Below, in pieces: positions 692 through 61,872 of a DNA stretch of 64,000 nucleotides. The translations under genes were made by a program, and so were the position numbers. Numbering within the stretch: the first letter of the stretch is position 1; each line of letters opens with the position of its first letter. The stretch comes from Cyanidioschyzon merolae (lineage: Eukaryota), in assembly GCA_000091205.1 (NCBI GenBank), contig AP006494.2. The stretch is one strand, 5' to 3'. The notes below the pieces were generated by a model. That model was not told the origin of the DNA. It did not search any database and saw nothing but the letters and a program-made list of their open reading frames with translations.

Positions 692-1771
692 ATGACCGAG
701 GACGGCAGACCAGTTGTGATCGATTCCGGAGCACTTTACACACGTGTAGATTTCGCTGGTAATGATGTGCCAAGTGTAACAGTGCGAACGGCGTCTGAAA
801 CGCCTGTAAACGGCGTCAGCGTGGAGACCGATCCCGGTCGCAGCGCCGGTGCGATTCCGGACTGGGAGAGGCTCGCTGGTTTCTGGGACTCGGTTCTGAC
901 GGAGAGTCTTGGGACCAGGGCAGAGAATCAGCCACTCTTGGTCGTTGATTGGGCAGAGTCAACGAAGTTCTCCAGGGAGCTTCTGGCACAAGTCGCTTTC
1001 GAAACACTGGGCGTGCCGGCGCTTTACCTCGCAGCACCTGCAGTTCTCGCACTATACGCTGTCAACCGAACAACGGGCTTATCTATTGACGTAGGGCATA
1101 CGAGTTTGCGGATCGCGCCTGTGTACGAGGGTTTCCAGTTTGGATACGCGACGACCACGCTGCCGATCGGTGGAATCGATATCGAAGCAAGGCTCAGAAC
1201 GCTCGTTCTTGAAACGCACATCGGGGATGCGACCACGACACGAGCGTTAGACACGCTTGACTGGCGCGTACTAAAAGAGGCCGTTTCAGAAGTCCGGCCG
1301 AAGCAAGGCGTAGACGGCGAAACGTCAACGTTCACTGCCAAGCAATATGCAGTGGTCGAGGGGCGCAGCATCCTCGTCACCCCGGACCAGTACCTCGGCT
1401 GCACCGAGATGCTTTTCACGCCGGCGACCTCTCCCGATGGGAAAAACAGGAGCACATTCACGGAGAGGGTTCATCTAGCGCTTATGCAATGCGAGCCGGA
1501 TATTCGGCGAGAACTTGCCGCGAATATAATGTTATATGGAGGTGGCGCTGCGCTCAAAGGACTCGCAGAACGTCTTCGTAGTGAGCTCGTTGACGTATTG
1601 CCGTCGTCTATGCATCCGAATGTCGCTGTTGCGCATGACCCTTCGACCGTCGCTTGGCGTGGGGGATCGATTCTTGCCTCCATAACGATGTTTCAGCAGT
1701 TGTGGGTCACGAAGCAAGATTATAACGAACATGGGCCGCTCTGCATTCTGCGAAAAGATACGATGCGATGA
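692..1771 (+). CDS. Actin-related protein (divergent actin-fold ATPase)
   Basis: The translation shows actin-family motifs: VVIDSGALYTRVDFAGNDVPS (actin N-terminal phosphate-1 loop), NIMLYGGGAALKGLAERLRSEL, and a C-terminus WRGGSILASITMFQQLWVTKQDYNEHGP (compare actin [28 protein letters not shown]). Length of 359 aa is close to actin's 375 aa. Confidence 0.8.
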   Translation: MTEDGRPVVIDSGALYTRVDFAGNDVPSVTVRTASETPVNGVSVETDPGRSAGAIPDWERLAGFWDSVLTESLGTRAENQPLLVVDWAESTKFSRELLAQVAFETLGVPALYLAAPAVLALYAVNRTTGLSIDVGHTSLRIAPVYEGFQFGYATTTLPIGGIDIEARLRTLVLETHIGDATTTRALDTLDWRVLKEAVSEVRPKQGVDGETSTFTAKQYAVVEGRSILVTPDQYLGCTEMLFTPATSPDGKNRSTFTERVHLALMQCEPDIRRELAANIMLYGGGAALKGLAERLRSELVDVLPSSMHPNVAVAHDPSTVAWRGGSILASITMFQQLWVTKQDYNEHGPLCILRKDTMR

Positions 1772-2389
1772 GTTCGAGTACGTGGCAGCTACAGAGAAAC
1801 GCACCCACGTGACGTAGAGGATCTGCACGTGATCCATGAAAGCTCTTTCATGGGTCCACAGTTTTCTTGTTGTAGTGGATCATGGGTGACGTGAGCTGTG
1901 CCTTGAATAAGGACGACGAAAATTTGAACGCGCTGCATGATGATTCCATCCATGGAATAGGAGATCGCTTCCGGTCCTAGTTCCTGAAACGGGGAAGTCA
2001 ACGCGGCAATTCAGAAAGAGGTATCTCGGTATATAAGGAGGCGACGTTTCCTCAAGGTGGAAACGCGGGCCGCGAGCGCTCTGGTCTAGAATTTTTATGC
2101 AACCCATGAGCATGGGCAATTTTTTAAACCTGCCTAGAAGAATGAAGCGGATCTCGCCGCTTCCACGTGCGCCATTGCAGAGTTTGAGCAGACGAAACCA
2201 CGAGCCGAGAACGAATACGTGTGAATTTTTTGCTTTCTCCAAAACATACGCATTTCACAAACTCCTTAGCTGTTTCTGGTACGAGCCAGTCCACTGTACA
2301 GGTGCACGCTAGTTCCTGCGTTCTGCCTTGTAATCCAGACACGATGAAAGTCACTCGCGGGCAGGTGCGATGTGCACTACACACGTATT

Positions 2390-3070
2390 AGATTAAAACG
2401 GAACACCGAACGAGTCGCGCTGCTCCTGCCTTGCGATCCTTTTTCCGAATTTGTTGCGATGAACTGCCTTGACATTCGACATGCAGTAATGAGAATTCGT
2501 GGATGCGTATGTAGACTTTGGATGCTAGGTCGTCGTTTTGGAGTGACTCGAATGACGCTATGCCGCTGGAATGCGCGCCGTCACCAGCATCCCGATGATT
2601 CCCGACGCAAGCGAACAAAAGCGCTTAGAAGAACTGGTGTCGTTTTCCAGCGCTTACGTGCAAGCCTCCAGTGCTCCCCTTTTCGTATACGTAGCATGTT
2701 CGAATCCCGCATTGTACCAGTTTTCGATCGTTCTGCTTCAAGGCAATGCTTGGACGCAGCGATTCGTGCCACTGGATCGGGGACGAAAACTTCTGGAAGT
2801 CGATGCTGGACAGCTTCTTCATAGGCTCATGAGGAATGTTCACTAGATATCTTACTTGCAATGATCGGTTCCGTTCGGATCCTAAATCATCCTCACTTGG
2901 AAGCTATTCACGGAACTACATTCGACAGCACCCTGATCCGTATCACCGTGAATACTCCAAGATACTCACGTCTCGTTTGTTGGCATGGAAGATGATCTTG
3001 GACTCGGGCCGCAGTCATCGCAGGGATCGCGAACAAGAAAGCGTGCGTCACCGCTTAGCACGAAGGGAGC
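2390..3070. repeat. Dispersed noncoding repeat, copy A (681 bp). It is ~98% identical to the inverted copy at 43769-44449 and carries a tRNA-like B-box motif GTTCGAATCC at 2698-2707.
   Basis: The six-frame ORFs inside it are near-identical but reverse-complemented relative to those at 43769-44449 (for example MQVRYLVNIPHEPMKKLSSIDFQKFSSPIQWHESLRPSIALKQNDRKLVQCGIRTCYVYEK occurs on - here and on + there). DNA boundaries fall where the alignment breaks, at agattaRaacggaac on one side and cacgaagggagc on the other. Confidence 0.8.
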
Positions 3071-3371
3071 ATATACGGGCCTAAATTTCCCGGCTTGCAC
3101 TCTAGCCGAGACTTTCCATCCGGTATTTTTTCCATCCCAGACATCATAGCGTTCCACAAAACCTGTATTAAATGAAACAGCGTGCGTTTGCGTCTGCTGC
3201 GGACAGAGCACTCGCCGTGGGGATTGTGTCGAAGAAGCCCGCGATCCTAGGTCGCCACACTGGGCCCAGAAACCGAGGTAGGCGTCGCCTTGAGCATTCG
3301 TTACTCGTTACAGGTATAATTCGTGAGCAATAAGGCATGTGTTTGGATAACAAAGGGAGGTCTCGGAGGGC

Positions 3372-3398
3372 GGTGTCTGTGGGTGTGTGTGTGTGTGT
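3372..3398. repeat. (GT)n microsatellite (ggtgtctgtgggtgtgtgtgtgtgtgt)
   Basis: Direct read of the sequence at 3371-3398. Confidence 0.7.
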
Positions 3399-5361
3399 TT
3401 GGTAGACATATGGGAAAACCCGCCCACTGCCAAGTGTCTCACAGCCGCGACAAACGCCCCAAGGCCATGTACAATAAACATGGAAAAGGCAAGTGAAGGG
3501 TAGATCGGAATTTCCAAAATTGCATGAAATGCGAAGAGCTAATCCGAAGAGAGCGAAATCGGAACTTGAACGCTGCCATCGACATCCCTCGACACCTGAA
3601 GACTGAGCTGGAGGAACAGGAACAACCGGCATATATAGAGCCGGGGATATGCGAGAGGAAAAGGAACCATTCGCAGAAGAAGCCCGCTAATGCTGGTACT
3701 GATAGTGACGGGGAGGAATCCAAAGGTTTGCACGAATGTCCGGTTTCGATAAGTGGACCCATTCCATCGTATACTGGCATTTGTGTATCCGGCACCAAAT
3801 GTATGTTCAGTTGAGCAGAAACGCTCTGCGAACATAGGGTAAATGAATACCCACTCGCGCATGCCTCCCAACCTTTTTCGACTGGCCCCTTGCAATCTGT
3901 TTCAGCTTCTCCTTGCTCACCACGACACTGAGAGTTTGCCCCAGAAATTTGGATCGCGTCAGCTCCTCGGATATCGTCTTCAGCACCGCACATCTCCTGA
4001 TATTAATGGCGGCATTAGAGTCTCGGTTCACGAACTCCTTACGTGACCTGCCGCTTGTCGAACTTGCCGATGCAAGGCGTCCCCGAACTCGTGCCCTCAG
4101 TTCTACTTGGTGCTCTGTCAATTCTCAGCGCTTTTCTTTCGACGAAGTGCTCCGCTGCCTTCTCTCCATCTCAACCTTCCGAACTGTACATTCCAACTCT
4201 TTTCTTATATTTTGGAAAAACGAACGCACTTGCTTATGCGCTTACGAGAGGACCTTCCCAGCGGGAAAAAACTTGCCCGAGAACGATGACATGTGCGCCG
4301 GTGTGTCATCTTGCTGAATACTCCAGCGATCCGCTCAATGGAGCGATCATTGCGTATCACGATAGAAAACATTCCCCCGATGCGGTTGAGCCACGGAGTA
4401 TGCGGAGGAATGAAAAACAGCTCTACTCCCCGACAGAATCTGCACAAACTCGGACATATCGGGAACGGTGAAATACCACGTTTCCCAATAGAAGGACATC
4501 GCCAGAGGTCTGGGCAAAGTCGTCCACGCTTCGACAAAGTGATTGGTCCTTTTGAATGTAAATTCTCTACTTGCGAAACTGAGACCGCGAGATGAATCCA
4601 CTGCAGCTGGAAACGATGATGATGATGTCTTAGTTTTCTTCGTGTTCAATTGTACATACAATGGGCCCCCTCTGCGCGAATATCCATTTACGCTCTGAAA
4701 ATTTCGTCCGAAGCAAGTCTCATCGACTGAGAAAAACAAATCGACGCCACTCTGCTTCATACCGATCGCAACGGTCCAGTAACTTTGTTGCAGTCGCGAT
4801 TTCTGTCGCGGATGGCCGTGCCTGCATTAGGACTCTGCTGCGATTGGTCCCCAGTGTTTCCAGGGCCATACGAACAAGCTGGTGATAAACAGAAACGCCC
4901 GTGGCGTGTCTTATCGGCGCTATTGCTTCCCATACGGTGATCCATGGATCACATTCTACAGTTGACCGCGAGCACACGCTGTGAGAGTACCAGTTTTTGA
5001 TGCGGAGCGCCTGTGCTTGTTCTTTAATCTTCCTCAGCCATCTGCGTTCTATGGTATGACCGACCGGAAGGAGGCATGCAGCCCTACTTGCACTGTTCAG
5101 TAAAGAATGCATATCCCACGAGCAATTCGTCTACAGTCTGTACTGTGCACTCCAGCATGATTTCGATCAGCTGCTGTACACCGCAGCAGGCGTGTAAAAA
5201 AATCGAGTTGAAAGACTGGAACACGGGCGTAAGTGCACCTGCAGCGGATCGCTTCGAAACGCGCACATACGCGGCAGGTATCCGAGGTTCTGCTCGGTGA
5301 AGCGTCTTCGTTCATTCGCGAACGCCTCACTGGACACTATTAACACAGATCTTGGGAGGTA

Positions 5362-13250: not shown

Positions 13251-16200
13251 TTCTGTGCGGAAACGCACCAGGTCATCGGAGGTCCGTCGAGCATCTCACG
13301 ATCGACTGCGTTGCTTCGTGGTACTGGATGCAACCCCGATTCAGCGCGAAGCGTGCTTTTCTGCGAGTCTATGGCACTATGAACTGGTCTTTGTTCGCGC
13401 CTGACTCGAATGGTTTTATGTGCCGAGCGTTGCGTGATTCGAAGGAATCCACGGATGCGGAGACTGTCTGCTTGGACCCGGTGATCGAGGCGGATCAGCC
13501 TCGCACGCTCGGAACAAAACCTATGCAGCTGCAAAAGGTCGCGATTCCGTTTCCAAACCTATTTGGGACCAGTGAATCTTTTGGGAACAGGAACTTGGAG
13601 CCAAACCGCTCCGACCACGAAGCAATTGGTCCGCATGTATCCGTATGGAATACAACGGAAACATTGATTCGAAATTCACGTGGATTTTCCTCGCGCGGCT
13701 ACGGCGGCGAGCACAAGGTACCAGCGCTGGCGATGACACAATCGAGTTTTGAATCGAGATCTGCCTCGATCATATAGAGCGTATGTTCCTGGGACTAGAA
13801 CTACAGCTTGAGACCAAGCGGGGCTTTTTTCTGCGTTGCTGATGCGCCCTTCAACGTTTGTTTTCGATTGACAAGAGCGGTGGTGGAGGGATTGATGCAG
13901 GGCAGCCTCGGGCACGACCATGAAGCTCAGATTTTGCAACCGCCAAAATATGCGATGGTTTCCCTCTCTATGCATTGAGGTCGTCTGCAACGCCGCTTAG
14001 TACCTGATGCTATGGAGGATGTGGATAATGAAGCGATGATCAGTAGCAGCTACTGCTTTGGAATCATTTCCCTGAGTGGGCGAAACAATGTAGCTGCTTT
14101 GAACATCAAGCAGCAGATATAGAGAGCATTTTTTGTTCTCTGCAACTATACGTCCTAAACGACGTGCATACCGAATGCGCACAACGATGTCTTGCCAAGC
14201 GAGGTAAGCTTTGCTGCGTGCATCTCGAAAGACGATCTGACATTGCTCCGTCCGGAAAGTTCACCGGAGCGTTCGCGCGAGTCGCTCCCGTCCTCCAGCA
14301 TGCTATTGTGCGCATCCAACTCTCGCAATAAAAACGATCCAACACAAACTGCTGAATAAGCAGGCATCCGTTTTCATCCTGAGCATGGCCGAGAAACAAC
14401 ACGGATCTGTAGTCACGCCGCGGAGGCCGAGCATGCCACGAGTTCGTCTCCAGCGAGGAGCAAACACACAATGCTCGGCGATATCAACGCTTCGCATGTG
14501 ACAATTCCTTCAAACAAAATTGCCATATAACAGCACCATCCCCTGTAGAGCAGACCGCTGTACTCCGTATTTCGCCACGTCAGCCGACAAAGCTGTCTAC
14601 CCCAAAGAGCAGGGCAAGAGTTCCGTACTGGTGCGAGCCATATGTTCCGACACACAGAGCCGACCTTGGTCAGGGGAGCGCAGCGTCCGAACACGTACGT
14701 TATCTGGTCCAGTTTTGAACAAGCTGGGAAGCGAGGTTCTTGGCTGCTCAGGAGCAACTATGTCGCTCTGACTTGTTTACACCCAGAGACGCGTTCGCCC
14801 CTATGACGGGCAGCCTAGGTGGCGTCAACACTCATGAGCGTCCCGACGTCAAGGCAGACGAGGCCAGCAACCGCAACACGACCCCGACTCGAAGTCTGCA
14901 AAAGATCTTGGATTGTATCCCCGGATGATATACCCCCGAAGCTCGTTTTCTGGTCACTAGCATGTCCGGCAATACCCGGAGCTGTGAGTCCCGAACAAGT
15001 GCACCAACACGCCTTTTTTGCTTTCCGTATATTTCTCTCGTCAGTACTCGATAACAGGAATGTTTTCTGTAGACTGGAGAAAGCTTGGGGAAAGGCTTTG
15101 TGCCGGCACTTGTATCTGGCGAAATGAACTATCTTCCAAGTACAGCGCAATCTCATTCGACAGTGAGCGAGCGGGGATGAACTAGCGTTCTCCCAGTCCG
15201 TCTGACGACCGTCGTGCACTAAGAACTGAACTTCATCAAACGCCATCCGCTCAACCGTCTGCTTGTCAATGCATTGCACTGCATATTATCTCGAAGAAAT
15301 GCTGTCGTGGGATGCATAGGATGAAAAGTCTTCGTACTGTTGATATCAGCGGCAGTGAAGCGAGACGCACGGACAAAGAAACCGGTATGCACGTATGGAG
15401 AACCGACTCGGATTGAACTCCTTACAATCGATTTCGTACAGAAACGCGAACGCCTACTTCAAAAGCGACGGGTGTTCTTCGCACTCGATGAGACCGAATT
15501 CGGGCGGCATGGTCGACCTGAATACTGGTCATCAAGAGTAGGCAAGATTCTGTCTAGAAAGAAGAGAAACATGCCCGAATCACGAGTACATCAGCGCTGG
15601 CGGCGACGCAATCTCGTGGTCGCCCAAACATCGCCAAAACAGTACGGGATCCTTCAACAACCCATGCTTCATCAAACCACTTCAAGTGACCTCCTTCTCC
15701 TACTCCTGTCTCCTGCTCTTACATAACATCACTTTCCATCGCTCGACAGAGGTCAAGGAGCACGAAGCTGCGACTGAAGCTGAGCAGCTCTTCGGACGAA
15801 CCCATTCTGCCATGTTCATTCCAGTCTCAGGCGTCTTCTCTGTTGTCAAACACCATGTTTACGCTCACAAATCCATAGACGAGTCATTCGCATCCGTGCC
15901 ACCGAAACATGCGAAACACCATGAGGGATCATGAAGCTTCTCTCTGGAAACAAAAGTCTCGACCAGCCTCTCCCGCGATGTCGCACCTCGTCCAGCAACT
16001 GTTCGTAAGACGTCCATAGGAACGCTGTCAGCTGTCAAGATTTTTCATGAATTTTTATCAAGCAAACGGTCATACGATAACACAGCCGATGCTCGGGACA
16101 GAAGATGCGATACGACCGGATTACTGGATCCGAGACTTGCACATACGCTTCCCAGCGTATTTTGACACGTCGCCTCGCCACTTCAGCGATCGGATGATAT

Positions 16201-18177
16201 CCAGCACAGGTGCCAGAACGCATGAAACGAACCGCAGAACCCGAGTTCCTGTGCAGGTCAATGTCGAACACGTCAATGAATGCACGCTGTTGGCGTTGCG
16301 CCCTAATCTCACTGGCCCAGAAAAGTGCGGTCCGCTCGTGGTGATTCTCGGGGCGTCCATGGAGGTAAACGACGACGACCTGTCTGCAGAAGACATCGAG
16401 GCGGCAGCGAGTTCGGAGGCGCGTTAGCCGCCACGAAAGCAGGACGGCACTTCAGATCATCCGAGCACAGGGTGTTGCCGGCAACCGAGGAACTCTGAGC
16501 ACTGCATCCAGAGGATGGTGGAAATCTGATGCCTGCCTTGCTTGCATGTTGTATCCATGCGGTTACCCAGAACAGTGCCTTCCAGGGCAAAGCAGACACC
16601 CTCGTTGAATCTGAGCGCCGCGAGCCTCGTCAGCGGCCTAGGCAATGTGATCTCCATATCATGCCTCAAGGCCTGGTTTATCACGATAGACACGTCTGTA
16701 CTGCACTGAACCGCTTCCTAAATGATACACGGCTGGTCTCTGCGAGCAATTGTGGACCATTCGAAGAACTCTGCACAGAGCATTGGCGGCGCTTTTTCAA
16801 GCTTTCTCGCTTCCAGAGGAAAATTGAAAGCAGGTTAGAGCATTCATGGAGACGGGCGCTATATCCATCGGCATACACCTCGTGAAACCTCGCTCTGAGT
16901 CGAGCAATGAGACTCATTGTGAACCGTGCAAGGTAGATGACGAAAAGGACAGCGTGGCGGTCCGTCGATCCTGGGCTGAAGAATATCGCGACCGTCGCCG
17001 TGCCCCGAGAGCAAGTGGACTCTATCAAAAGGCCTGAACCGAACGCGGATGAAGATGTTCAGCTTTTCCCAGCGCTCGAGTATCATGGATAGACGAGCGT
17101 GATAAACGCCCGGAGGCATGCTAGCAACGAAAATTCTGGTGTCATGACCCATTTCGACGCTCTGAGAAACGTATCGACCAGAGGGAATGCAATGTACGCT
17201 TCATTCCGAGCGCACATGTGCGTCCAAATGGCTCATGCAGACGATCCTTGGCACAAGTACATGAGACAGCGCTGGCGCTGCCGATGCTTTCCACTGCACC
17301 GAAGCAAGAAGCATGCTTTCGCCATCTTCAATGCGTTTTGGAAAGAAATGACTGACAAGCGGCGTTATTTGGCGGCGGTCCGTGGTGCTGACCGATATTT
17401 AGGGCGCCGAGGCCGCATTTCTGCTTCCTAGACGAGAGCGTGGAACGACTGCGGGAATCGATTCTGCCAGATTCCTATCGATGCGTTCAGCACGACATGA
17501 ACGCAACACCAGCACGGGTGCACACTGAAACTGGTAGAGGAGAAGCCGGTGAAACCGACCTGCATGCACAAGATGGTGTACAAGAAGCTGAATGAACGTA
17601 CGATCGCGAGGCAATGAAACCTGGGATTCTCCGCACGGTGCGATGCCACCTGCAATACCGCGAGCAAGCACTTCCTACAAAAGAGACCTGAACACCTTGA
17701 CGAATATTTGGAAGTAGCTCGTACTTCAGAAGCATCCAGTGGTTTTCTACCGAGCGAAATTTCGAAGGAATGTCTTGTACTAAGTGTGAGCACTGTGGTG
17801 AAATGCTGAAGACTTTCGCTGAAAGAAACGCCGTGGCCTGGAGACGTGGGATCGGATTCTCGACTCGAGCAAGGAACTCATATGGTGCAGTGCAGCAACC
17901 ATGAAAAGCTGGATTGCCGTGAATATCCCCCGGGAACGTTTCTTCTGCGCAATACGTGGACAATCACTATGTTCGATTATTCCATCATTCCGAGTATGCA
18001 TTGGAAGCGTTTCTGACAAGTAGAGGCGGCGCTGCAGCGCAGCAGATCGCTGCATGTGTTGCGCTCAGTGCAATGCGATGCTACAACACCGCAGCGTATC
18101 CGGCACCCGTGAAACGCGGTGGTGCATAGACGGGATCACTTGCTTAAATTCACTCACGAACGAAAGCAAAGTCTTTT

Positions 18178-19434: not shown

Positions 19435-22209
19435 ACAGTAATGCGTCAAGCAACAGAGTCGTTGGCATGTGCGGCGCCAGGGCAACTTTTCAGGAAGACT
19501 GGAGTTTGCTCGAGGCGTCTGATGCTTTGGTCATGGGTCATCGGCATGGATGTAGGGGACTTGCGGAGTTGATGTATGCTCCAGTATGTCACAGAGATAT
19601 CGTGCCTGAGCTGCTGTATCGAGGCGTTTTGTTTGGGGGCCTGGCGGACGCCATCACCGAATCTCGTCGATCAGGCGCTGCTCTGACGGGGAGTCCTTGA
19701 GCAAAAGACGCTGGGGTTCCCCGCAAAGCCCCGATCCAAATCCATGTGGTTCCGCTTGGATTGGCGCACGGACTGGAGCTTCACGCTTGCATCGGAAAAG
19801 GACACTAGCTGAGGTATCGGATACACTGGCCTTGGTTCCGGCTGATGACCAATATGTGAATGCGTTTGATGGATCCAGTCGTTGCTGTGCGTGATCGTCG
19901 CACCGGACTGGGTGCTGGACGGCTCAAATTTGGAACAGTGGACGCGGTAACGCCGAGCGCCCTCAGTGGCGGCTTGTACCAGGTGCATCGTACGCAAAAG
20001 AACGGTCACAGTCGCACATGGGTACATTGCCGACGGCAGCGTCGTGAGATGGACACTGGGTCGGACGCTGCACCGACAACCGAGCGTCGAGTGCTTGCGA
20101 CTAGCGTCGCGAACAAGCCACTAGGGCCGAACCATAGACGAATGAAAGTACAGCACTTGTCCCGCAAGCGACGCATCTTGTTCGGAGTGTAGAAATGCTG
20201 GACCAAGGAGGACTGGCAGGACTGAACGGGTATCCGTTCTGGGCCATAGATATCGCGCCGTCGCGCACTAGCTTGGATGCGGGGAACAATAAAGATGTCG
20301 TTGTTCTAATACTCTACGCATTGAGCGGGACTTGAGTGCATGTGCGGATTTGATTTTTTGCCATAGTATCAAATTGCATACAATGGTACTCTCGGAGGCA
20401 ACACCAAGTCGTCAGACAATCGCGTCCGATGCAAGAAACACATGAGCTTGTTTGCATCCGCGTTCAGGATTGAGCAAGAATCCTTCGGAAATGCCAGCGA
20501 TGCGGTGTTTTCTCTGCCGGTTCTTGCCCATGCGTCGGAGAGCAAAGCATGCGTCGTATCCGTCAATGCCGATGGGTATCCTCACTGAAGCTCGGTTCTG
20601 ACCAAGCGCACACCTTGAGCATTCGTCCGCGTGCATCGAAGAGACCTCATCCCTGACATGGTTCTACGATACTCGTTTCTATGCCCGTGTGTGGGCTCGT
20701 TCACGTTACGGTATACTTGATATGCACAACGCGCAATCGTAACGCGAGTTGCATCCTCAGACCAGCACAGAGACCATGCGTTTTCTCCAGTTTGCGTTTT
20801 TCTGCGAAGAATGCAGACAGAGCGTAGGCTTAGCTTCCCGCAATCGAACGTACCGTGTCAGACGCAGCCATTATGGGTATATATCCGAGTACCTGCGAGC
20901 TGGCACACATCCCATCCCGCATTCCAGAGCACGTGGTCAACGCTGTGGCGGGCGTTTTTTTTTCAAACGCTAATCTCGCAATGGAGCCTTGCTGAAGCGT
21001 CGCCCTGGACGCACCGCACCCCAGGGGTTGCGTGATGTCGCCATAGGGCCTGCGAATGGACCATGAACTCCGTGGAAGGGGTGGGCGTTGTTGGTTTGCT
21101 CGGAACTGAACGTGATCATGCAATACGACGGATGCTCGCTTCAGTGCCGATCTGCATCACGCAACCGGGTATCGCTGGTCAGTGCTGATGATCCGTCGAT
21201 CGGAAAAACGGCTGGATAACTTTTTGCACACGCACCTGCGCTTTAGCACCGCGCTGCGACTGACGTGAACCAGGTCGTTATATACGCTGGCTACAGAGTG
21301 TACGTTTCTGCGCGTTTGCCCGGCACCATGACTTGCCGGGAAAATCCTCAACTGCTCTCGAGGACGCATCGCATGCGCCCTTACGGTTTCGCACTCACTT
21401 CGACATGCCGCGCAGAACTGCATCTTCTGGAGCAAGTCAAGCTCGAGTAGATACCTCACATGCGCATTCGTATCATCGGGAAAGCGCGATGCTCGCACCG
21501 CCTCCCTGACTAGCGAAGGCGCACGAGCACCGACTCCCTGCGACATCGTCCGCCGTACCACAGACGTGATGCGAACGATGAAGCGAAGCATATATCCAGC
21601 AGTCAGCTATTGCTCGAGCCGACGCCCTCCGCTGTATCGCAAAGCTCATGCGTCTCGGAACTGCGTCAGCACCAACGCAACAGGTGCTATCGCAGACGCT
21701 CACAGCAGGTACAGTGCACGACAGAGCACGGGCAATGGCCTGTATCTCCGATGGAAAATATGGATAGTGGAACTTGGACGTAACGCCTGCAACGATGGAC
21801 GCTTTCCCGAATGCCGATATCCATCGCACAAAAAACAAGAGTATGCCTATCAGGCGAAACGTTCTGTCAAGCGAAAAAAGAAACAGCCAGCTGTGGCGCG
21901 CAATCTCGCGACCTGCGTGCGCGTGCGCGACTCCGAGATGTGCACGGGAGGGTGCAGTGTATGCTTCAGCGCACCCGCCTCCGGTCAACGTTTCCGGGCG
22001 ACGCACTGGATGAGCTGCTTCACTACGAATCGGCAGCTCTCAAGCTGAACGGAATAGCACACCGTCGATACAGCAGCGCGTGCTGGTCAAGCGACGTATA
22101 CGGCTGCCTGAGAGCGGTGCTTGGAGTTTTGCACGCCTGCATCCTCCTCTAGCACAATAGACTTGAACCTTGAGCGTATCCAGCACCAGTCCGGCACTAG
22201 ACACGGCCG

Positions 22210-29083: not shown

Positions 29084-29313
29084 ATCGCCCATGACGCATC
29101 CATTCCGAATGCTAGGATCTATGGTCAATCTACACGTTTCGTCCTCTGAAAAAGAATCGCCCATGACGCATCCATTCCGAATGCTAGGATCTATGGTCAA
29201 TCTACACGTTTCGTGCTCTGAAAAAGAATCGCCCATGACGCATACATTCCGAATGCTAGGATCTATGGTCTATCTACACGTCTCGTGCTCTGAAAAAGAA
29301 TCGCCCATGACGC
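29084..29313. repeat. 72-bp tandem repeat, 3.2 copies (unit atcgcccatgacgcatccattccgaatgctaggatctatggtcaatctacacgtttcgtcctctgaaaaaga), about 110 bp upstream of the SDR gene
   Basis: Unit starts are at 29084, 29156, 29228 and 29300, with 1 to 3 substitutions per copy. The overlapping ORF 28734-29387 translates the repeat as ESPMTHPFRMLGSMVNLHVSSSEK x3. Confidence 0.85.
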
Positions 29314-30200: not shown

Positions 30201-32299
30201 GTCGTGGAAACTGCATACCAGCGGAGAGGCTGTGGCTTTCGCTCGGGCGCACTGCATGACACAGTTATTTGATTCCAAAACCGCGTCTCGATCTGGGCAG
30301 TACTCCGTGCTGTACGGGTCGTGACCGTTGGGAGTATGCCCCACGGATATTGCGTATTATCCGCAGCCGACGACCGTCTGCACCGCCATGACCCACACGG
30401 ACAGCGGTTTCCAAAACTCGCCTCCATACGCTGTACGGTACTGGATACGCTGATAGCGTTACCGGTGAGCGCGGGCGATGCGTCTGCTCACGGAGACAAG
30501 GAATGACTGCGGATAAGCGCGAGCGAACTCCGAGGCGCCACTGGGCACACCAGGGCGCAGGTCGCGGCTCCAGAGCCATGAATCTCGACAAGGCCGACAC
30601 CGAGTCGTCGCCGGCACCCAGGCTGCCCAGCGATGCCGTTCCCACTCATGGTGGTGCTCTTGTTCCGAACTTGAGTGGGATGGCGTTACGTGCGCAACGA
30701 TGCCCTCAGGGTGGCAGTATCGCTCATGGTGGAGCGTGTGCCCACACCAGTTGTGGAACAATGCAATGCAGAGACGCATGTTGGCCAAGGCGCTCAGCAT
30801 GCGCACCTGGATCATCCAGATTGGCATATCCACCCGAAAGCACTGAAAAAGCATTTTGGATCAAGTCGGCGCAGATCTGGTTCAAGAGGTTCCTTGGTGC
30901 CGCTACACACCAAGTGTTCTCCAGGAACGGGCACGGCTTCGGACACCTCCAAAGCGTAGTTCAGGAGAAAGCGTCGACTGGTCACCGAAGCAACCGTCGA
31001 GTGTCCACGTTAGCTCGTCACCATGTAGGGAATGCAACCTATCATTCACATTCGAATACTAGTGGGAGATTGTAAGGTCCCCGGCGTTCACGTGCGGCAC
31101 CCGCTGGCACGGTAAAGCGCTTGTTCGCGAACTGCGGTGAAAACCTGACCCTGGTTCGTATCAGAACACGAGCTGCTCACTGTGAATCACACTGCAGTCA
31201 TTGTGGCGACGCAGTTCCCGGAATCCCGATACACCTACTCTCTCAGCGTCCAAGTGGAGAACAGGTCTGTGGCTGCCTCTTTGCGGTAGAGCAGCTGCCT
31301 GAGGAACTGGAGTTGATGGGAGGCGATCGCTCGCATGGAGCACAGCGCTGGCGCCTGGTGACCCTGTATCTGTGCAACATCCCAGGCTCGTGGTCACCAG
31401 ACGCACATGCTAGCGTGTAGGCGAAAGGCCCAGCGAACCGAAGGAGCCGTCTAACACACCGAATCCTGTACCTGCCCGCTGGTGAATGCCGAGCAAATGC
31501 CCGTGTCGATGACCCGCGGCGCGTTCCACACACAAGTGTGAAGCAGAAACTCGTTACCCGGGATTCATTCTACCGGCCAGTTTTCTTCAACGCGTCGTGC
31601 TGCAGACACAGGCAGGCCTGCATACGCAGACTATCCGAGCCCAACGTGTAGACGAGACCACCCGACACGCTCTGGCGACGCGTGCAACACGCCTCGAAGC
31701 GACGACCGTCGCTCTATGGCAAAGTTGTTCTGCCTGCGTACTGCGTCTGCACCGTCGCTAGCGACGCTACTGCGGACGCGCTCAACAGACTCGACGCACG
31801 ATGGAGCATATGACATGATCAGCATGCTCCAGGGAATGTCCCAACAGTGGCTAATCGTCAATGCACGCAGGGCATGGAATGGTGGACGCTTCCCCGATTG
31901 CTGGGACCGATCGTGTAACCAAGGATCCCTGGTTTACGTCAACGTTGTATCAAACATAAAGTAACTGTTGCTGTGCGCAGACTTGCCGATCCGAACGAAC
32001 AGCCGCTTTTGTAGAGGCGCCTTGCGGCACGCGTTACCATATCGGGAGCAAACTGGAAAGTTCCGACGAAAACGCAACACTGAACTGCTCGCGCACTTGC
32101 TACAATGATCTATTTCTTCCAAAACTATTTAGATGTACAGCGTCAACATTTGAAGTGCAGCCGTAGGTGCTTTCGGATGCATAGGTGGTTGTGGGATGCT
32201 CGGCTGGCGTGCCTTATGTCGCCGGGATCAAGATGATTCGCGACGCCCCCTGAACAAGGATTCGACAAACAGCCCGTATGATGATCCAGTTCAGACGTA

Positions 32300-32480
32300 C
32301 AAGCTTGCACGCTGCCCTTTTCGGTACGTGAAGCACATTCGATTCACACATACTTCAAGTTTTCGATCATTGTGTTTCAACGTAAGTAGCGGGCGCAGCA
32401 AGTCGCGCCACAGGCCAACCGCGAACAACAACTCGACGTCGCACCTCGCCGACTCGTTCACAAGTTCATGCCCAAACTGC
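32300..32480. repeat. Degenerate third copy of the 681-bp dispersed repeat family, about 75% similar over the core (cccttttcgGtacgtGAagcaCattcgaTtc...ttcaagttttcgatcaTtGtg)
   Basis: ORF 32291-32494 (-), LLRPLLTLKHNDRKLEVCVNRMCFTYRKGQ, parallels ESLRPSIALKQNDRKLVQCGIRTCYVYEKG of the intact copies. DNA similarity is visible on manual alignment. Confidence 0.45.
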
Positions 32481-33516
32481 ACTGAAATCGTCATGTACAG
32501 TGATCGATTCCGTGTGGAAGAGAACTCCTCATCGCTGTGTGACTAGCAACGAAGCGAAATGCCACACCAGCGTGACACGTCTTCCGGGGTATGCTCCCCG
32601 ATGTCCTTGCCTCTTCTGTTCGAAGGGAGAGGTCACGGGCTCGGACTTGAGTCCTCACAACGATCGCTTCCAATGCGAGCGAACGCAGACGGATCAGAAT
32701 CTCTCGACTCGATCTCCAGCCTAGAGCTCTCGTACGGTACATGTTGCACCGAGCGTCAGCGTCGTGTTCCACACATCCCTTGTCGAGTGGAACAGCATGC
32801 GCTCGCACGTGCAGCGGACAGCGTACTCGCACATTGCATCCCCTGCGATGATGCCCCTTAGCATAGAGTAGCGGAAACGGAGGAAGGCATCGACGGGAGC
32901 ATTCTGGACTCGTCACGAGCATGTACCGAGCAATGAAACAAGCGCTCACGCACTACAGAACACCACTCAGAATACGAGTCGTAGAGTGTACATGGAGTCT
33001 TTCATCTTAAAGGTGTCTCAATTCCAGGTGCGCGTATTCGGTTACGCTTCTCGCGTTTAGTAGCACATCCATTCGGAGTGCGTTCATTTCCAAACATGCT
33101 CAGTCCAGGGGAAAACTGTGAACATGGAAGTAGGGGATCCTGGAGGCCCGTCACCGCCGGGTGCCGAGTCAACGGAAGCAATCCTCTTCTCGCCGACCTT
33201 TTAGCGAAGAAAAACACCGGAATAGACGGGAAGAGGTGTTTACCCGACCGAACGATGACGATAGTGCAGTCGTACTCAGGGCACGAGTTCGAGGCCAAGT
33301 TGAATTGCTGAGTTCAATCAGAGGCAATAAACACAAGGCGCTTGTCATCCGACACTTGAACGCTGCTCTCTATACCAGACGATATACGCTGATCAAGACG
33401 AGACCTACAGCGTTGAGGCGATCTACCGCAATAGGGCAGCCTCTAACGCTCCAACACCAGAAGCAGAAGCCAAAACCTTCACCCTAACACGTCGACATAC
33501 AAACCAGACAAGCGTT

Positions 33517-33595
33517 TATCTATCTATCTATCTATCTATCTATCGGTGTACACATTCGCACCCGCACTCGCACCCGCACTCGCACCCGCACACCC
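33517..33595. repeat. Compound simple repeat: (TATC)7 at 33517-33544, followed by (GCACCCGCACTC)x3 at 33557-33595
   Basis: Read directly from the sequence. Confidence 0.8.
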
Positions 33596-33802
33596 TCTAC
33601 CGTGATCATCGATCGACGTCGATCGGGCATCCGTTGCGTTCGCGTCCAGTGCCGAAGCCGATCACTCGATTCGTCGCCCGATCTGGAGGCAAAGCCACAT
33701 CGCGGTGTCGCGCGGTCGAGACACGCGCACACCTACCGCTACAACGCGAAACGTCCGCGATCCGTTATCGTGCAAACGCGCCGCTCCAGGGCGCCTCCAT
33801 CA

Positions 33803-39503: not shown

Positions 39504-39545
39504 CGCTGCGGAGCGTACGAGCGTCAAGGTACGCGTCGCCTCGAA

Positions 39546-40090
39546 GGGTATCGAATCGTTACCGACTGGTTCCTGCCGGATATCAAAACCGCTCTAGTAT
39601 GCAGATTCGATCAAGGGTATCGAATCGTTACCGACTGGTTCCTGTCGGATATCAAACCGCTCTAGTATGCAGATTCGATCAAGGGTATCGAATCGTTACC
39701 GACTGGTTCCTGTCGGATATCAAAACCCTCTAGTATGCAGATTCGATCAAGGGTATCGAATCGTTACCGACTGGTTCCTGTCGGATATCAAAACCCTCTA
39801 GTATGCAGATTCGATCAAGGGTATCGAATCGTTACCGACTGGTTCCTGTCGGCTATCAAAACCCTCTAGTATGAAGATTCGATCAAGGGTATCGAATCGT
39901 TACCGAATGGTTCCTGCCGGATATCAAACCGCTCTAGTATGAAGATTCGATCAAGGGTATCGAATCGTTACCGAATGGTTCCTGCCGGATATCAAACCGC
40001 TCTAGTATGCAGATTCGATCAAGGGTATCGAATCGTTACCGACTGGTTCATGGCGGATATCAAACCGCTCTAGTATGCAGATTCGATCCG
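39546..40090. repeat. 68-69-bp minisatellite, 8 copies (unit gggtatcgaatcgttaccgactggttcctgccggatatcaaaaccgctctagtatgcagattcgatcaa). Each unit junction carries a 7-bp inverted repeat, attcgat...atcgaat.
   Basis: Unit starts are at 39546, 39615, 39683, 39751, 39819, 39887, 39955 and 40023. Copies differ by small indels (aaacc versus aacc) and substitutions (gactgg versus gaatgg, gcag versus gaag). Confidence 0.9.
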
Positions 40091-40901
40091 GGGTGCGCAG
40101 CGAGGCATCCATCGCCAGGACAAGTATGCAATCGCTCCGAATTCGTACCAGCTGGGTACCAATTGCTCTAGTGAGAGGATTTTTGAAGCTCTAGAACGGA
40201 ATCGGAGACGAAGACTCGACGCAAGCAACACGACTTTTACCAAGTGGCGTTGATGCGTTTCTGCTTTCAATATCGGAATCGAATGGTGCCCGTGCGAATG
40301 CCGGTGGCTTTGCTGATTCGAGGAAGCATGCCGCCAGTTTTCCTTAGCTCTCAGGCGAGTTCATCAGGTAAAACCCTCGACAGCTGGACGTCCAACAAAT
40401 ACCATCCCCGGAGACGCCCTTGAGAAAGCGTCGCGGAATCCTCGACAAACACAGGATTGCATACGAGCGCAGGCTCACCAGTTTTCGGCACAACATGCAG
40501 GCCGAGTCGTTCGAGCTGGAACCAAGTTGCTGGTGCCCGTAGAGTACCCCTTTTCCGCGACGCAGTCCAACGTTTGCGCTGCTTTCCGCGAGCCCTATCG
40601 AACAGAATTTCCTGCGCGCATTGCCGGTTAACGCAGGAGTTTGCAGCAACCTCGAACGATCATGAATGACGGACAGCGGTCGACGCAAGCGCAGCCGCTT
40701 GATGAAAAGTGATGCTCTCCCGAACCAACACGCTGTTTTGAAAGCTCAACGTCAGAATGCCCAATGTCGTACAATGGATTGCATCAGTTCACGGTGTACC
40801 TTTTCACAATCGTTTAGTGTGCTCATTAGACATCGACGAGCGACAAGTGATGATCCGTTTGTTGCGCAAACTGCCCAAATCGTAAACGCCAGCAACGCTT
40901 C

Positions 40902-41858: not shown

Positions 41859-42027
41859 GAGTCAAGCCGCACAGTTTAGACTTCCAGTTCTCTGGTATGC
41901 TCTTCGAGGTCAGTTTTCAGCACACCGTAGCAGAGGATCACCTGGCTTTACGAGACGCTTTCGATGCGCTTCGACTATAAAGGAGGCGATCCGGACGCCG
42001 CGGCCGCTCCTCGCGACGGTCACCAGC

Positions 42028-42051
42028 GCTGCTGCTGCTGTTGCTGCTGCT

Positions 42052-42086
<35 letters not shown>
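42028..42086. repeat. (GCT)n/(GTT) trinucleotide tract, about 20 units, i.e. CAG/CAA on the minus strand. It lies about 170 bp upstream of the GrpE start.
   Basis: Read directly from the sequence. Spurious ORFs translate it as poly-Cys or poly-Ala. Confidence 0.85.
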
Positions 42087-43768
42087 CGAGGCGTCTCGCT
42101 GGTATCCGGTCAGAGCAGGGAGGTGAGCGCTACTCGGACGGGCATATCATGCCGTATATGGCAGTTTAGACCTTAGCGCTGCTGAAGAAACACTGCAGTG
42201 CGGAGCAGTAAGCGGACAAGGACATGAGCGACGTTCTATGACTTTTTTCGCCGCGGCTCCGATGACGACGACTGCAGCGGTGCGTCCCGGATGAAGCGGC
42301 AGGCATAGAGGGCGATTGCTGAAAAATGTGCGTCACAAAGAGTTCTCCAGTTGGAATCGTTGTGATATGTACAGATCGCGGGCAGTGGTGCCAGGAGTAA
42401 CGATGGATCGCGTTGGAAGCATTTTGGAGTCGAAGAGGCGATGGCAGATTTGGATCAACGTTACGAGAAATTTGGAGTTTTGTCGCAAGGCAAAGTTTGA
42501 CACCATGCAGGTTGTTTGTGGCATCTAGAGTTGCCACATATATAGATGAAAGACGCATGCTTTAGCCAGAGTGCTTGAAAGCACTTGAAACTGTTCCACT
42601 GGCACGCACGACGATGAAGGTTCACTGTTGTTCTGTTGGTTGGTGTCCGTCGCTCAAGAGCTGCGTGCAATGGACTCACTTGTAAACACATCCGTTCAGG
42701 AGCAAGCATCTATTGTGTGAATAGGTGCATCACGATGCTATCTGCCGGGTTGCACTGTACTTGCGCCTCTGAGGGCTCTGCGACCGTTTGCGCTGTTCAG
42801 GCGCTTTCATGTTGACGCAGTTTCACTTCGCCGAGACGCCTGAATGGTTTTGTATGCTACGTGCACCATTCATCAAACTACATGGTCCAAATATGCGTAT
42901 ACCGTACGATTTGTCGAGTCGTAGACAAGCACCAGTCTTGCTGGGCAACCCGATATGTGCTTATGCGCTCGCGGATATGGCGGGCGTCCGCTTTCTCTCT
43001 CGCTCTCGCTCAGTCATGCGGTTGTCGTACAGGGATTGATACGACAAGTGCGTGGAGCACGCTTTGACATCGATGATCCGACAGTTGTATCGCAGGAAAT
43101 CAGCCTTCAAGCTCATGAATCGCCCTGACGCCTGCAGTCGTGGCCGATGTGACCAGTACCTGCGAGCGTACATGGCCCGCTGCATGAATCCATGAAAGGT
43201 GCGCTTCGAGTCACTGACGAATACAGGAGCAGCGTACCCGGCAGTCGCTGACTCCTGCGTACATCGCGCATTGTCTTGTAGAGCACTTCGTCTACTGGGA
43301 ACGCGATGTCACTGTGCCGGGACGCAGAAAGTCCAGCCTGCAAAAGTTGGTACCTGGACACGGTCGAGGCCTCCGCCGAAATCTCCCATATCTTCAAGAT
43401 TTTGCGGGGCACAAGCTCGCGAGTCCAGTCTCTACGCCAGGCTGCCCACGAGCAGGAGAAACCGAAACAAAGCATCCCCAGCGCTTCGTCACATTGTGCA
43501 TTAAACGGAGGCTGGCAGGTTATCGCTCACCAGCGGATGCCCGCGAGTGACGGTCCCGTGCACCCGGTGGCAGATCCCGGAGCAATACTCCTCAGAGCGT
43601 CGAGCGAAACCGGTATCCGAATCAAATAGAACGCGTCTTCGAACTCGGTGTACAAGTTGCTGTTCTTGTCGATAGAGAATTTGCGGAACCCGATGTTGCC
43701 TCTGATAAAACGAGTAACCGATAAAAAATCCAGTCAGGACAGCAACGCAAGATAATTGATTCGTCTAC

Positions 43769-44449
43769 GCTCCCTTCGTGCTAAGCGGTGACGCACGCTT
43801 TCTTGTTCGCGATCCCTGCGATGACTGCGGCCCGAGTCCAAATTCATCTTCCATGTCAACGAATGAGACGTGAGTATCTTGGAGTATTCACGGTGATACG
43901 GATCAGGGTGCTGTCGAATGTAGTTCCGTGAATAGCTTCCAAGTGAGGATGATTTAGGATCCGAACGGAACCGATCATTGCAAGTAAGATATCTAGTGAA
44001 CATTCCTCATGAGCCTATGAAGAAGCTGTCCAGCATCGACTTCCAGAAGTTTTCGTCCCCGATCCAGTGGCACGAATCGCTGCGTCCAAGCATTGCCTTG
44101 AAGCAGAACGATCGAAAACTGGTACAATGCGGGATTCGAACATGCTACGTATACGAAAAGGGGAGCACTGGAGGCTTGCACGTAAGCGCTGGAAAACGAC
44201 ACCAGTTCTTCTAAGCGCTTTTGTTCGCTTGCGTCGGGAATCATCTGGATGCCGGTGACGGCGCGCATTCCAGCGGCATAGCGTCATTCGAGTCACTCCA
44301 AAACGACGACCTAGCATCCAAAGTCTACATACGCATCCACGAATTCTCATTACTGCATGTCGAATGTCAAGGCAGTTCATCGCAACAAATTCGGAAAAAG
44401 GATCGCAAGGCAGGAGCAGCGCGACTCGTTCGGTGTTCCGTTCTAATCT
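43769..44449. repeat. Dispersed noncoding repeat, copy B (681 bp). It is inverted relative to copy A at 2390-3070, and its end lies about 210 bp upstream of the DegP gene start.
   Basis: See copy A. The ORF-track peptides differ at only a few residues between copies (RHQHPDD versus RHRHPDD; SRLLAWKMILD versus SHSLTWKMNLD), implying about 97-98% nucleotide identity. Confidence 0.8.
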
Positions 44450-44661
44450 GACGCAGGCATTATAGTGCGCTTGGGGTTCAAGAGCTCCTGGTGTGCAGCG
44501 CTCACGACGCTTTCGCTGGGACTGGAGCGTTCCATTCACAGTCTGCACGTTTCGTGCACGCGGAGCAAGACGGAGTTCAGTTCACTGTAGACGCTACTTT
44601 GGCGATTGGGACGGTGTGAAACTGCCTGCACCCGTGTTTCTGCCTCCGAAGCTTCCCACTG

Positions 44662-54573: not shown

Positions 54574-54660
54574 CCGGCAACAGCGGTATTCACAAGCGGC
54601 AGCTGCGGCTCGACACCGTGGACTACGCGCAAGCGGCCTTGTGCGGGCAATGCTCTACCC

Positions 54661-54686
54661 ACAGCAGTAGCAGCAGCAGTAGCAGC

Positions 54687-54745
<59 letters not shown>
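54661..54745. repeat. (CAG/TAG)n trinucleotide tract, about 28 units, about 90 bp downstream of the LCMT stop
   Basis: Read directly from the sequence. Spurious ORFs translate it as poly-Leu, poly-Cys or poly-Ser. Confidence 0.85.
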
Positions 54746-54747
<2 letters not shown>

Positions 54748-59889: not shown

Positions 59890-61872
59890 TCATTGGGATC
59901 GTTCGAAACGGAGCGGCGTTTGCGGAACGCACGGTTTGTCGAGCGTCCGGTTCACGACAGATGCCAGGAACGCGTGCGTCGCAAGGCGTACGCGAGAAAC
60001 GTGCTTTCCGGCCAGAAGGGTTCGAGTTTTTTATGCTGTACGATGGATGCATTGAGCGTAAGAGTTTCTGTACCATGGGTTTTGTGAATGGCCCTGGCCC
60101 AAGTTAGTCAGCATCAAATAGAACGTGAACGCTCATTTTGGTGCACATGCTATTGTTCCCAGTGCCAGCAAAAGCATCCTCTGCAGGCTGATTTTTTTGC
60201 GTATGCTTCCGTTCTCTTCTCGATAGTCTTCGGATTTGAATACGTGAGTCTCTCCTTTGTTTCAAGCTGCTTTGCAAACAGAAATTGGATGTGCATAGCA
60301 ATGTAAATGATCCGATTCCACAATTAAGCTATTCTCGAGGCATTTCATGGAGATGCAAAACTTGCGATCGACGCCTCGTTTGCCATAGTCATCAGGTGTG
60401 TAGAGAACCTCGGTGCGACCTCCGCACCAGCAGTGACACTTGATTGTGGTCAGGCGTTTGCATCTATGTAGTCCGAGCCTCCTGTTCCGAGCGCTGCTCT
60501 GCGGCACGCGAGCGTTTGCTTCAACGCTTGGTACATGCCCTCGACGGGTGCAGCGAGCTCCCGTCCATGCCCTAGCTCAACGCCGCGCCCACTACCGTTT
60601 TATAAAGATGTCGGGCATGTTATGGACGTTCCACGTGACACATACGCGGACGAAAGCACACGCAAGCGAAAGCAGTCCCGTTCGCCAGCGGATTTGTGAA
60701 CCGCCAGAGCATCGATGGAGTATTCAGGCTCGAGATCAAGTCGAGACAAATTTCGATCAGCCAACGCTCTTTTCCTATAAAGTTTTGACGCAAGCTACCC
60801 TCATAGCAGTTGCCACGACAAGTGAATTCCGAGTCCAAAACGCTCTTCCATCCAAACAGAAGAGACGGACGCTCGTGATACCATATCGTATGAAGGGGTC
60901 TCATGCTGGTCCTATCGAATGCTGCTTCGTCGACGGATACAAACTGAGGACGACTTGCGTTTCGAATGTCACTGATTCCTTGAATTTACATATTCAGGGA
61001 ACATTCGGCGTGCGCTTGTTAACAGGTCATCCGGAGACGACGATCAACTTTTCTTCGTCGTCAGTCCGGCGGTGCAAATCGGGAAGCCCACTTGTCACCC
61101 TGAAATACACAGATCAAAAACATGACGAATGCGTGATGTGCGCACGCTGCATGTGAGGAAACGAGAGGCGTGGGTGCTTGTCATCGACTGTCGCGGCTGG
61201 GCATCCCGGGAAACGTTGCAAGAACTGAAAATCAGGACCAAATCGCGTATTTCCGTATTCCATTTTCGTCGGATACTCGTGTAGGCGGATGCAATGTTCC
61301 TTGCGAATTCACAATGCAAGCACATAACCACGTAAGCAAACCGCCACACTTGTATGCATAAAGGCCCGTATGCTAGCATGCAAAGGTGACGCTAAGTTCG
61401 GCACAACTGCCGGTCAGTGCGCCTGCAGCGTACCCCCGGAGGATGTCCACGAAGCGCGTTGACGAGTGCTGTTCACTACGCGCATGCTTCGCAACCTCAC
61501 AGATATGAATATTTACCGTTCGCGGCTTGGTTTCGCGCAAAACAGCTTTAGGCAGACGAACATTGCGGTTTACTGACAGAGACATATCGATTGGAAAGCG
61601 TCTAGTGAGTCCTGATGATCGCGCTCACCATCGGTCTGGAGCCGCTGAATCAGAGCACGTGCTCTCATCAACGGGAATCCGTTGCTTTTCCTGGTGCTTG
61701 CGCGCCATGCGTCCACCGTTCAGTAGCGCGTCTGGCCGGGCGTGTTGCCTGCCGGCTTTCGTAGACGAAAACGCATACTGGGCGTGCACCAAAATCCACA
61801 GCAGGTACGGACATACGAATCCATACAAGAGACCTGGGCGCCTGTCCTCGCGAGCGTATGGTGCATGCCATT

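Follow-up and report, generated by a model that had tools for sequence, protein, structure and literature searches.

Gene conversion between separate loci is established for the arms of sex-chromosome palindromes, duplicated globin genes and yeast Ty elements. Among the repeats described from the alga Cyanidioschyzon merolae, a 3.2-kb interspersed 'WSV repeat' was reported in 253 copies, with an ORF resembling WSV486 of WSSV (Nozaki et al. 2007, PMC1955436). CMe-1A was described as a Fanzor1 element of 3169 bp, present in ~150 copies and without terminal inverted repeats (Bao & Jurka 2013, PMC3627910). These two appear to be the same family, since their sizes agree and the latter work also lists a Fanzor1 in WSSV. 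The same authors described TE-N2_CMe as a separate element, 95% identical to positions 1-635 of CMe-1A (PMC3627910). LTR retrotransposons were not reported in the C. merolae genome, and the genome of strain 10D was published as complete (PMC1955436). The alga is known for gene targeting based on homologous recombination (PMC3764038), a fact of background rather than a test of what follows. No relevant literature was found on gene conversion in Cyanidioschyzon or on TE-N1/N2/N3_CMe.

The window analysed here is a stretch of 64,000 nt from contig AP006494.2 (assembly GCA_000091205.1) of C. merolae strain 10D, with an actin-related protein (BAM80692.1) and a 3-methyl-2-oxobutanoate hydroxymethyltransferase (BAM80695.1) as flanking proteins. 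A sequence-only reading of this window had proposed a near-identical inverted pair 40.7 kb apart, and the pair was recovered by repeat finder, BLASTN and pairwise alignment. Copy A (2390-3077, plus strand) and copy B (43762-44449, minus strand) are 688 nt long, 99% complementary and separated by 40,684 nt according to the repeat finder, and 98.55% identical over 688 nt without gaps according to BLASTN, with 10 sites in the window distinguishing one from the other. The limits first given, enclosing 681 bp, were found again, but similarity runs 7 nt further to a total of 688 nt, and the identity of '97-98%' had been set slightly too low, there being 8 mismatches in 681 nt (98.8%). Pairwise alignment gave the edge motifs AGATTA[A/G]AACGGAAC and CACGAAGGGAGC. 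The claim that no other intergenic similarity in the window is as high stands for non-tandem pairs, but two tandem arrays, at 29084-29313 and 39518-40162, are of comparable similarity. Apart from the pair, long inverted matches in the window are limited to CTG/CAG runs interrupted by CTGTTG/CAGTAG units, at 42027-42088 and 54650-54760, which lie in opposite orientation 12.6 kb apart.

The pair had been taken for a stand-alone element of 681 bp. This description was not upheld, as the near-identical tract occupies only the first 688 positions of a family unit of about 985 bp, two further and diverged copies of which, missed by that reading, lie in the same window. The copies are as follows.

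2390..3077, plus strand: homogenised tract of copy A, family positions ~1-688, 98.5% identical to copy B.
3078..3370, plus strand: old, non-homogenised right part of copy A, ~57% identical to B and 59-70% to C and D.
43762..44449, minus strand: homogenised tract of copy B, reverse complement of A.
43479..43761, minus strand: old, non-homogenised right part of copy B, its limit at 43479 taken from a profile that includes B.
32064..32974, plus strand: copy C, diverged and full-length, ~60% identical to A, detected by BLASTN, alignment and nhmmer.
60484..61363, minus strand: copy D, diverged and without the first ~85 family positions, detected by alignment and nhmmer.
Contig L001 8524-8724, ~590-790 bp to the left of the window, minus strand: fifth copy, partial (right-hand 200 nt), E = 2e-22.

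Comparison of the window with itself by sensitive BLASTN gave the first sign of a third region, at 32218-32414, which shares 69-72% identity with the central part of the unit. BLASTN also matched C with D (73% over 93 nt) and the segments 3151-3215 and 3269-3311 of A with copy C. By nucleotide profile the full extents are 2390-3370 (plus) for A and 44449-43479 (minus) for B, and C and D align to A and B along their whole length at ~55-65% identity with few indels. The fifth copy, on a hot-spring metagenome contig (designated L with a number here and below), was detected by a profile built without that copy, and the 7 kb that follow the right end of the window contained no family copy. The unit begins AGATTA... 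and ends ...GGGAGC in the case of the tract or ...GGAGG in the case of the family, and a (GT)n run follows copy A only. The family is old, unclassified and noncoding, and dispersed in the nuclear genome of C. merolae. Antisense to copy D lies an ORF of 238 aa (60440-61156, plus strand), which is also open, at 236 aa, in many hot-spring strains (cluster P0028-P0040); it had no Pfam match, a homologue search found its own cluster alone, and the members of that cluster are absent from NCBI.

The two edges of the near-identical tract differ in kind. To the left of 2390, no homology was detected among the flanks of A, B and C (local score z <= 1.8), and alignment places the left-end terminus of the family at the same point in all three copies. 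The left edge is thus the terminus of the family and the end of all homology between A and B. On the right, homology between the flanks of A and B is significant (z = 10.1 for the local score, relative to shuffled sequences) and continues in register beyond the edge at ~57% identity, the two 60-column blocks that come next having 34/59 and 33/58 positions identical. A profile made from C and D only aligns A without a break from 2392 to 3337, passing through the right edge, and profiles built without A or B align copy B through the identity edge to ~43658. The 'sharp equal-length boundaries' of the sequence-only reading are visible as described, but the left one coincides with the end of all homology whilst the right one falls within homology of ~57% and is interpreted here as the end of a conversion tract. 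Were the 688 bp newly inserted, old family sequence would not be expected to follow in register, and to do so at each of two independent loci. It is directly explained if one old copy has in part been replaced by the other.

Under recent transposition, A and B would each have received its own insertion of a young, non-autonomous element ~688 bp long and comparable to TE-N2_CMe. The left edge matches the family terminus exactly in A, B and C, as such an element would have it, and there is a precedent in C. merolae, where a 635-bp element without terminal inverted repeats shares 95% identity with the 5' end of a longer one (PMC3627910). We regard this explanation as unlikely, however, given the old family sequence in register past the right edge of both copies and the lack of any match of the family to the CMe-1A consensus. 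Target-site duplications were not found, no flank word longer than 6 nt being common to both sides, and no tract-bearing contig was found at a third locus. Furthermore, the shared polymorphism and zero fixed differences described below would require exchange after insertion in any case. Other classes of element were compared in the same way. Features of a solo LTR were absent (no 5'-TG...CA-3' ends and no target-site duplication of 4-6 bp). The lack of terminal inverted repeats and of a poly-A tail, already remarked upon in the sequence-only reading, was confirmed in the sequences of A and B: the longest inverted pairs measure only 10-13 nt and lie internally, and poly-A is absent at either end of the unit. 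The loss of ~85 left-hand nt from D and the restriction of the fifth copy to the right-hand 200 nt could fit 5' truncation of the SINE type, as seen in few copies.

To look for further near-identical loci, JGI metagenome contigs were scanned with the left-end motif common to A, B and C. This motif is not conserved beyond those three copies and the scan yields no family-wide copy number. Of 13 loci obtained, seven were unrelated chance matches and six were C. merolae-like, with L007 and L009 at A, L015 at B, L013 and L016 at C, and L008 joining A and B. An ORF of 91 aa called inside the tract belongs to a cluster of nine variants, and the seven that were looked up all lie at A or B (L025 and L030 at A; L020-L024 and L026 at B). 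No third locus with the tract was present among the JGI metagenome contigs, the copy number being that known from these contigs. Recent mobility, one of two options left by the sequence-only reading, is not supported, in view of the absence of target-site duplications and of the mapping of all tract-bearing metagenome contigs to A or B, or in the case of L008 to a join of both.

A TnpB-like relic beside copy A and the description of TE-N2_CMe in PMC3627910 first pointed to that element as the identity of the unit, and the 3169-bp CMe-1A consensus was taken from the supplement of PMC3627910 and compared with the window. BLASTN matches were obtained at 3923-4199, 21609-21831, 29098-29214, 31692-31822 and 33048-33416, and the remnants are listed below.

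3852-4595, minus strand: CMe-1 Fanzor1 relic, 37% identity over aa 500-728, E = 5e-31.
16089-17614, plus strand: CMe-1 Fanzor1 relic, from comparison with CMe-1A.
33278-33469, plus strand: CMe-1 Fanzor1 relic, from comparison with CMe-1A.
33048-33166, plus strand: CMe-1A match, from comparison with the CMe-1A consensus.
21609-21831 and 31692-31822, minus strand: CMe-1A 5' fragments, from comparison with the CMe-1A consensus.

The Fanzor1 (TnpB-like) relics are pseudogenised and contain stop codons, but the RuvC-III motif RDSNAAINIRR is kept at ~4020, within a TnpB-like relic beside copy A (3807-4121, minus strand) for which a homologue search found nothing. A relic of a DDE_3 (Tc1/IS630) transposase at 4205-4537 (minus strand) was considered on the strength of a sub-threshold Pfam match (E = 0.0028; 18 bits, the cutoff being 28.6) and a 'FIPPHTPWLNRI' motif like that of Tc1/IS630 transposases; this match is probably spurious and was treated as such because 4205-4537 aligns with the C-terminal third of the CMe-1 Fanzor1. 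In the tandem array at 29084-29313 (72-bp period, units 95-99% identical) each unit contains the first ~50 nt of CMe-1A (positions 2-50, ~80% identity, minus strand), and a transposon terminus seems to have been amplified there into a minisatellite. Microsatellites at 33518-33590, (CTAT)7 followed by (CGCACC/CGCACT)n, come directly after a CMe-1A relic and just before an ORF starting at 33602. The second tandem array, at 39518-40162, has a 68-bp period and ~9.5 units; the BLAST alignments flanking it overlap by ~280 nt in L013 and L016, suggesting a copy-number polymorphism in which those strains have about four units fewer.

The A/B family resembles the TE-N2_CMe/CMe-1A relationship in several respects. 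It occurs in the same genome, is of similar length (688 against 635 bp), lacks terminal inverted repeats or determinable target-site duplications, and has a short 5' portion that is far more similar between copies than the rest. It differs in that the A/B/C/D family has no detectable sequence similarity to CMe-1A and its termini are unlike those of CMe-1A. The consensus left A, B, C and D unmatched in the window with BLASTN at word size 7, the family profile gave no match to it with nhmmer (--max, E <= 100), and CMe-1A positions 1-70 compared with the left ends of A, B and C gave z = -0.4 to -0.6. Identity of the unit with TE-N2_CMe or the CMe-1A 5' end was rejected on this absence of similarity to the CMe-1A consensus (blastn, nhmmer and termini), the comparison with TE-N2_CMe itself being by description only. 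The family was also considered as an alternative 5' module of a CMe-1 subfamily. CMe-1 Fanzor1 relics adjoin copies A and C, but C alone has a CMe-1A relic of matching orientation after it, with CMe-1A 841-954 and 2841-2982, and no such continuation was found after A, B or D (z = 3.3, -0.9 and 1.5, respectively), so that this candidate was likewise dropped. The family is thus, by these sequence comparisons, distinct from CMe-1A, the CMe-1 relics merely sharing the same intergenic spaces. A closer connection would have the 985-bp family as an undescribed non-autonomous mobile element that travels with CMe-1A or is acted on by it, the A/B tract arising from an RNA-guided Fanzor cut in one copy and its homing-like repair from the other. 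We consider this very unlikely; if true, repair triggered by Fanzor would explain how exchange started between copies only ~60% identical.

Near-identity of the two copies could also reflect function, the 688 bp being a duplicated RNA gene or promoter block held by purifying selection. The left end of B lies 212 bp from the first start codon of a trypsin/PDZ-domain protease ORF (44662) and may overlap its promoter or 5' UTR, and repeats of this genome were reported to be transcribed (PMC1955436). Against this, the homologous region of C and D is only ~60% identical, indicating that the family is not constrained, and selection leaves the polymorphism common to both loci unexplained. In agreement with the absence of any recognisable structural RNA noted in the sequence-only reading, Rfam gave no match on the whole window at the gathering threshold and none on 2300-3450 at E <= 1, and ARAGORN found no tRNA-like genes. 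Folding energy was ordinary (MFE z-scores of -0.54 for the plus strand and +0.57 for the minus strand) and the RNAalifold consensus fold was weak (-56 kcal/mol over 1015 columns with a covariation term of -4.9, from four sequences and hence with limited power). A functional explanation is accordingly rated as highly improbable, and no function of the sequence is necessary to explain the pattern. The statement that the copies contain 'no long ORFs' needs amending, as ORFs of 150 aa (2372-2824, plus strand) and 177 aa (44015-44548, minus strand) are called mechanically over A and B, but it holds in that these have no Pfam match or coding signature. Mismatches by codon position show no period-3 pattern (0.37/0.45/0.40 for A vs C; 0.44/0.43/0.47 for A vs D), the six reading frames score alike with none preferred, and neither the ORFs nor the consensus ORFs match Pfam, all of which bears out the earlier description of the pair as noncoding. 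Coding potential had been suspected from peptide-like stretches on the minus strand (e.g. LRPxxxLKxNDRKL) and was rejected for want of period-3 or a preferred frame, the consensus restoring no ORF.

To characterize variation at the two loci, the tract and its flanks were aligned between 10D and about 15-16 hot-spring metagenome contigs, which are 99.1-99.5% identical to the window; the placement of three further contigs, L025, L026 and L030, rests on BLASTN. The tract is present in all strain contigs that extend to locus A or B. Fixed differences between the loci occur on the left at 2386, 2387 and 2389 and on the right at 3071, 3074 and 3078-3080 onward, with none at all from 2397 to 3070. 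All differences within 2396-3051 segregate at both loci, and at least 12 sites have both alleles at both loci (2396, 2479, 2586, 2593, 2631, 2662, 2686, 2975, 2978, 2983, 2996 and 2997). Each of three haplotypes over 2975-2997 likewise occurs linked to the flanks of either locus: GTGTC is the locus A haplotype in 10D and is seen at B in L015, L016, L021 and L023; ACAAT is the locus B haplotype in 10D, L020 and L024 and is seen at A in L001; and GTGAT occurs at A in L019 and at B in L022. These haplotypes sit 74-96 nt from the first locus-specific site, and their phasing is credible as that distance fits within a single read or a 141-mer. Sites more than ~150 nt from a flank (2586-2686) may be mis-phased by short-read assemblers and carry less weight, and the strongest evidence of polymorphism comes from the seven sites near the tract edges. 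A pattern in which two loci share their polymorphism and no fixed difference separates them is the classical mark of interlocus exchange that is still going on. Where the sequence-only reading had left open an element either 'recently mobile or concertedly evolving', the second part is upheld by this shared polymorphism, the absence of fixed differences in the tract and the in-register homology past its right edge, but the first is not.

The same contigs bear on the reference assembly. Were the pair an artefact, a collapsed or duplicated segment, the copies would not be expected to differ at 10 sites, and independent contigs from different samples span both loci with unique flanks, including L015 and L020-L024, which cross copy B with B-specific flanks. 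Of the first four contigs retrieved for locus A, three break off within the repeat, as a true repeat would lead one to expect. Misassembly or collapse, which the sequence-only reading had itself named as the finding that would count against it, is excluded by the contigs spanning each copy, and the probability left to such an artefact is negligible.

Exchange by crossover was also considered, whereby repeated reciprocal recombination would flip the 40.7-kb segment to and fro and swap the distal parts of the copies, giving rise to shared polymorphism. The inverted orientation makes crossovers survivable, and one contig, L008 (JGI20133J14441_1014795, 2426 bp), joins the left flank of A, the tract and the right flank of B. 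It connects window 1335-3077 to 43761-43079, the junction expected after inversion of the 40.7-kb segment, and in itself suggests a real inversion polymorphism in hot-spring populations. Eight contigs carry the reference junctions, however (L001 at A; L015, L020-L024 and L026 at B), and the reciprocal junction was not found among the contigs. Assemblies break inside the repeat in L002-L004, L007, L009, L016, L018 and L019, making a mis-join likely. At shared variable sites the left part of L008 matches the locus A contigs L003 and L009 from sample Ga0080006, in which the assembler stopped inside the repeat, and its right part matches the locus B contig L016 from that same sample; a chimeric join is the simpler reading of L008 than a true inversion. 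The locus is comparable with inversions mediated by inverted repeats (NAHR) in that a 688-bp inverted pair of 98.5% identity flanks ~40 kb and a contig has the predicted junction, but unlike them it has no reciprocal junction and the other spanning contigs have the reference arrangement. In addition, L001 has an internal patch, B-type at 2975-2997 with A-type flanks on both sides, and patches of this kind look like non-crossover conversion. Crossover as the main route of exchange is therefore held to be improbable.

These data are best explained if A and B are two old family members and ectopic homologous recombination, mainly non-crossover gene conversion, has kept homogenising their first 688 bases up to the present, and we hold this to be the probable history of the pair with good confidence. 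A break or gap in one copy would be repaired with the other copy as template. On the left, exchange would halt where A/B homology ends at the family terminus, and on the right it would halt inside the old repeat, leaving the remaining sequence ~57% identical. We infer break repair or synthesis-dependent strand annealing as the pathway, and an origin for the first exchange between possibly strongly diverged copies can be put forward only on the same footing. Conversion between sequences of ~60% identity is normally strongly suppressed. This mismatch barrier makes the first 688-bp exchange hard to account for if A and B were already ~60% identical; a third donor copy or a break-induced event may lie behind it. 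GC-biased conversion was considered and set aside, as the G+C content of the tract (0.504) is not raised over that of neighbouring and homologous family segments (0.516-0.562).

Exchange between A and B shows ectopic homologous recombination at work on dispersed repeats of C. merolae in nature, in an alga used as a minimal model eukaryote whose gene targeting depends on efficient homologous recombination. The ~1-kb family differs from the 3.2-kb 'WSV'/CMe-1A Fanzor1 element, the one repeat so far described as abundant in this genome. Its four to five copies in ~80 kb make it probable that the published inventory of repeats is incomplete, a suspicion already voiced by Mikulski et al. (2017, PMC5405695). 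For annotation, the pair is to be labelled as repeat copies with a conversion tract rather than as a young transposon or an RNA gene. No general principle is altered by the finding.

In common with known cases of interlocus conversion, the locus has a tract of high identity within older homology of lower identity, polymorphism common to both loci, no fixed differences in the tract, sharp edges and no signature of insertion. It differs from them in that the partners are noncoding relics of an unclassified repeat in a compact algal genome of 16.5 Mb, in that the surrounding homology is unusually low (~57%), and in that exchange is seen in natural hot-spring populations through metagenome contigs rather than in pedigrees. 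The phenomenon is of a well-known kind, here affecting an unannotated repeat family of a model alga.
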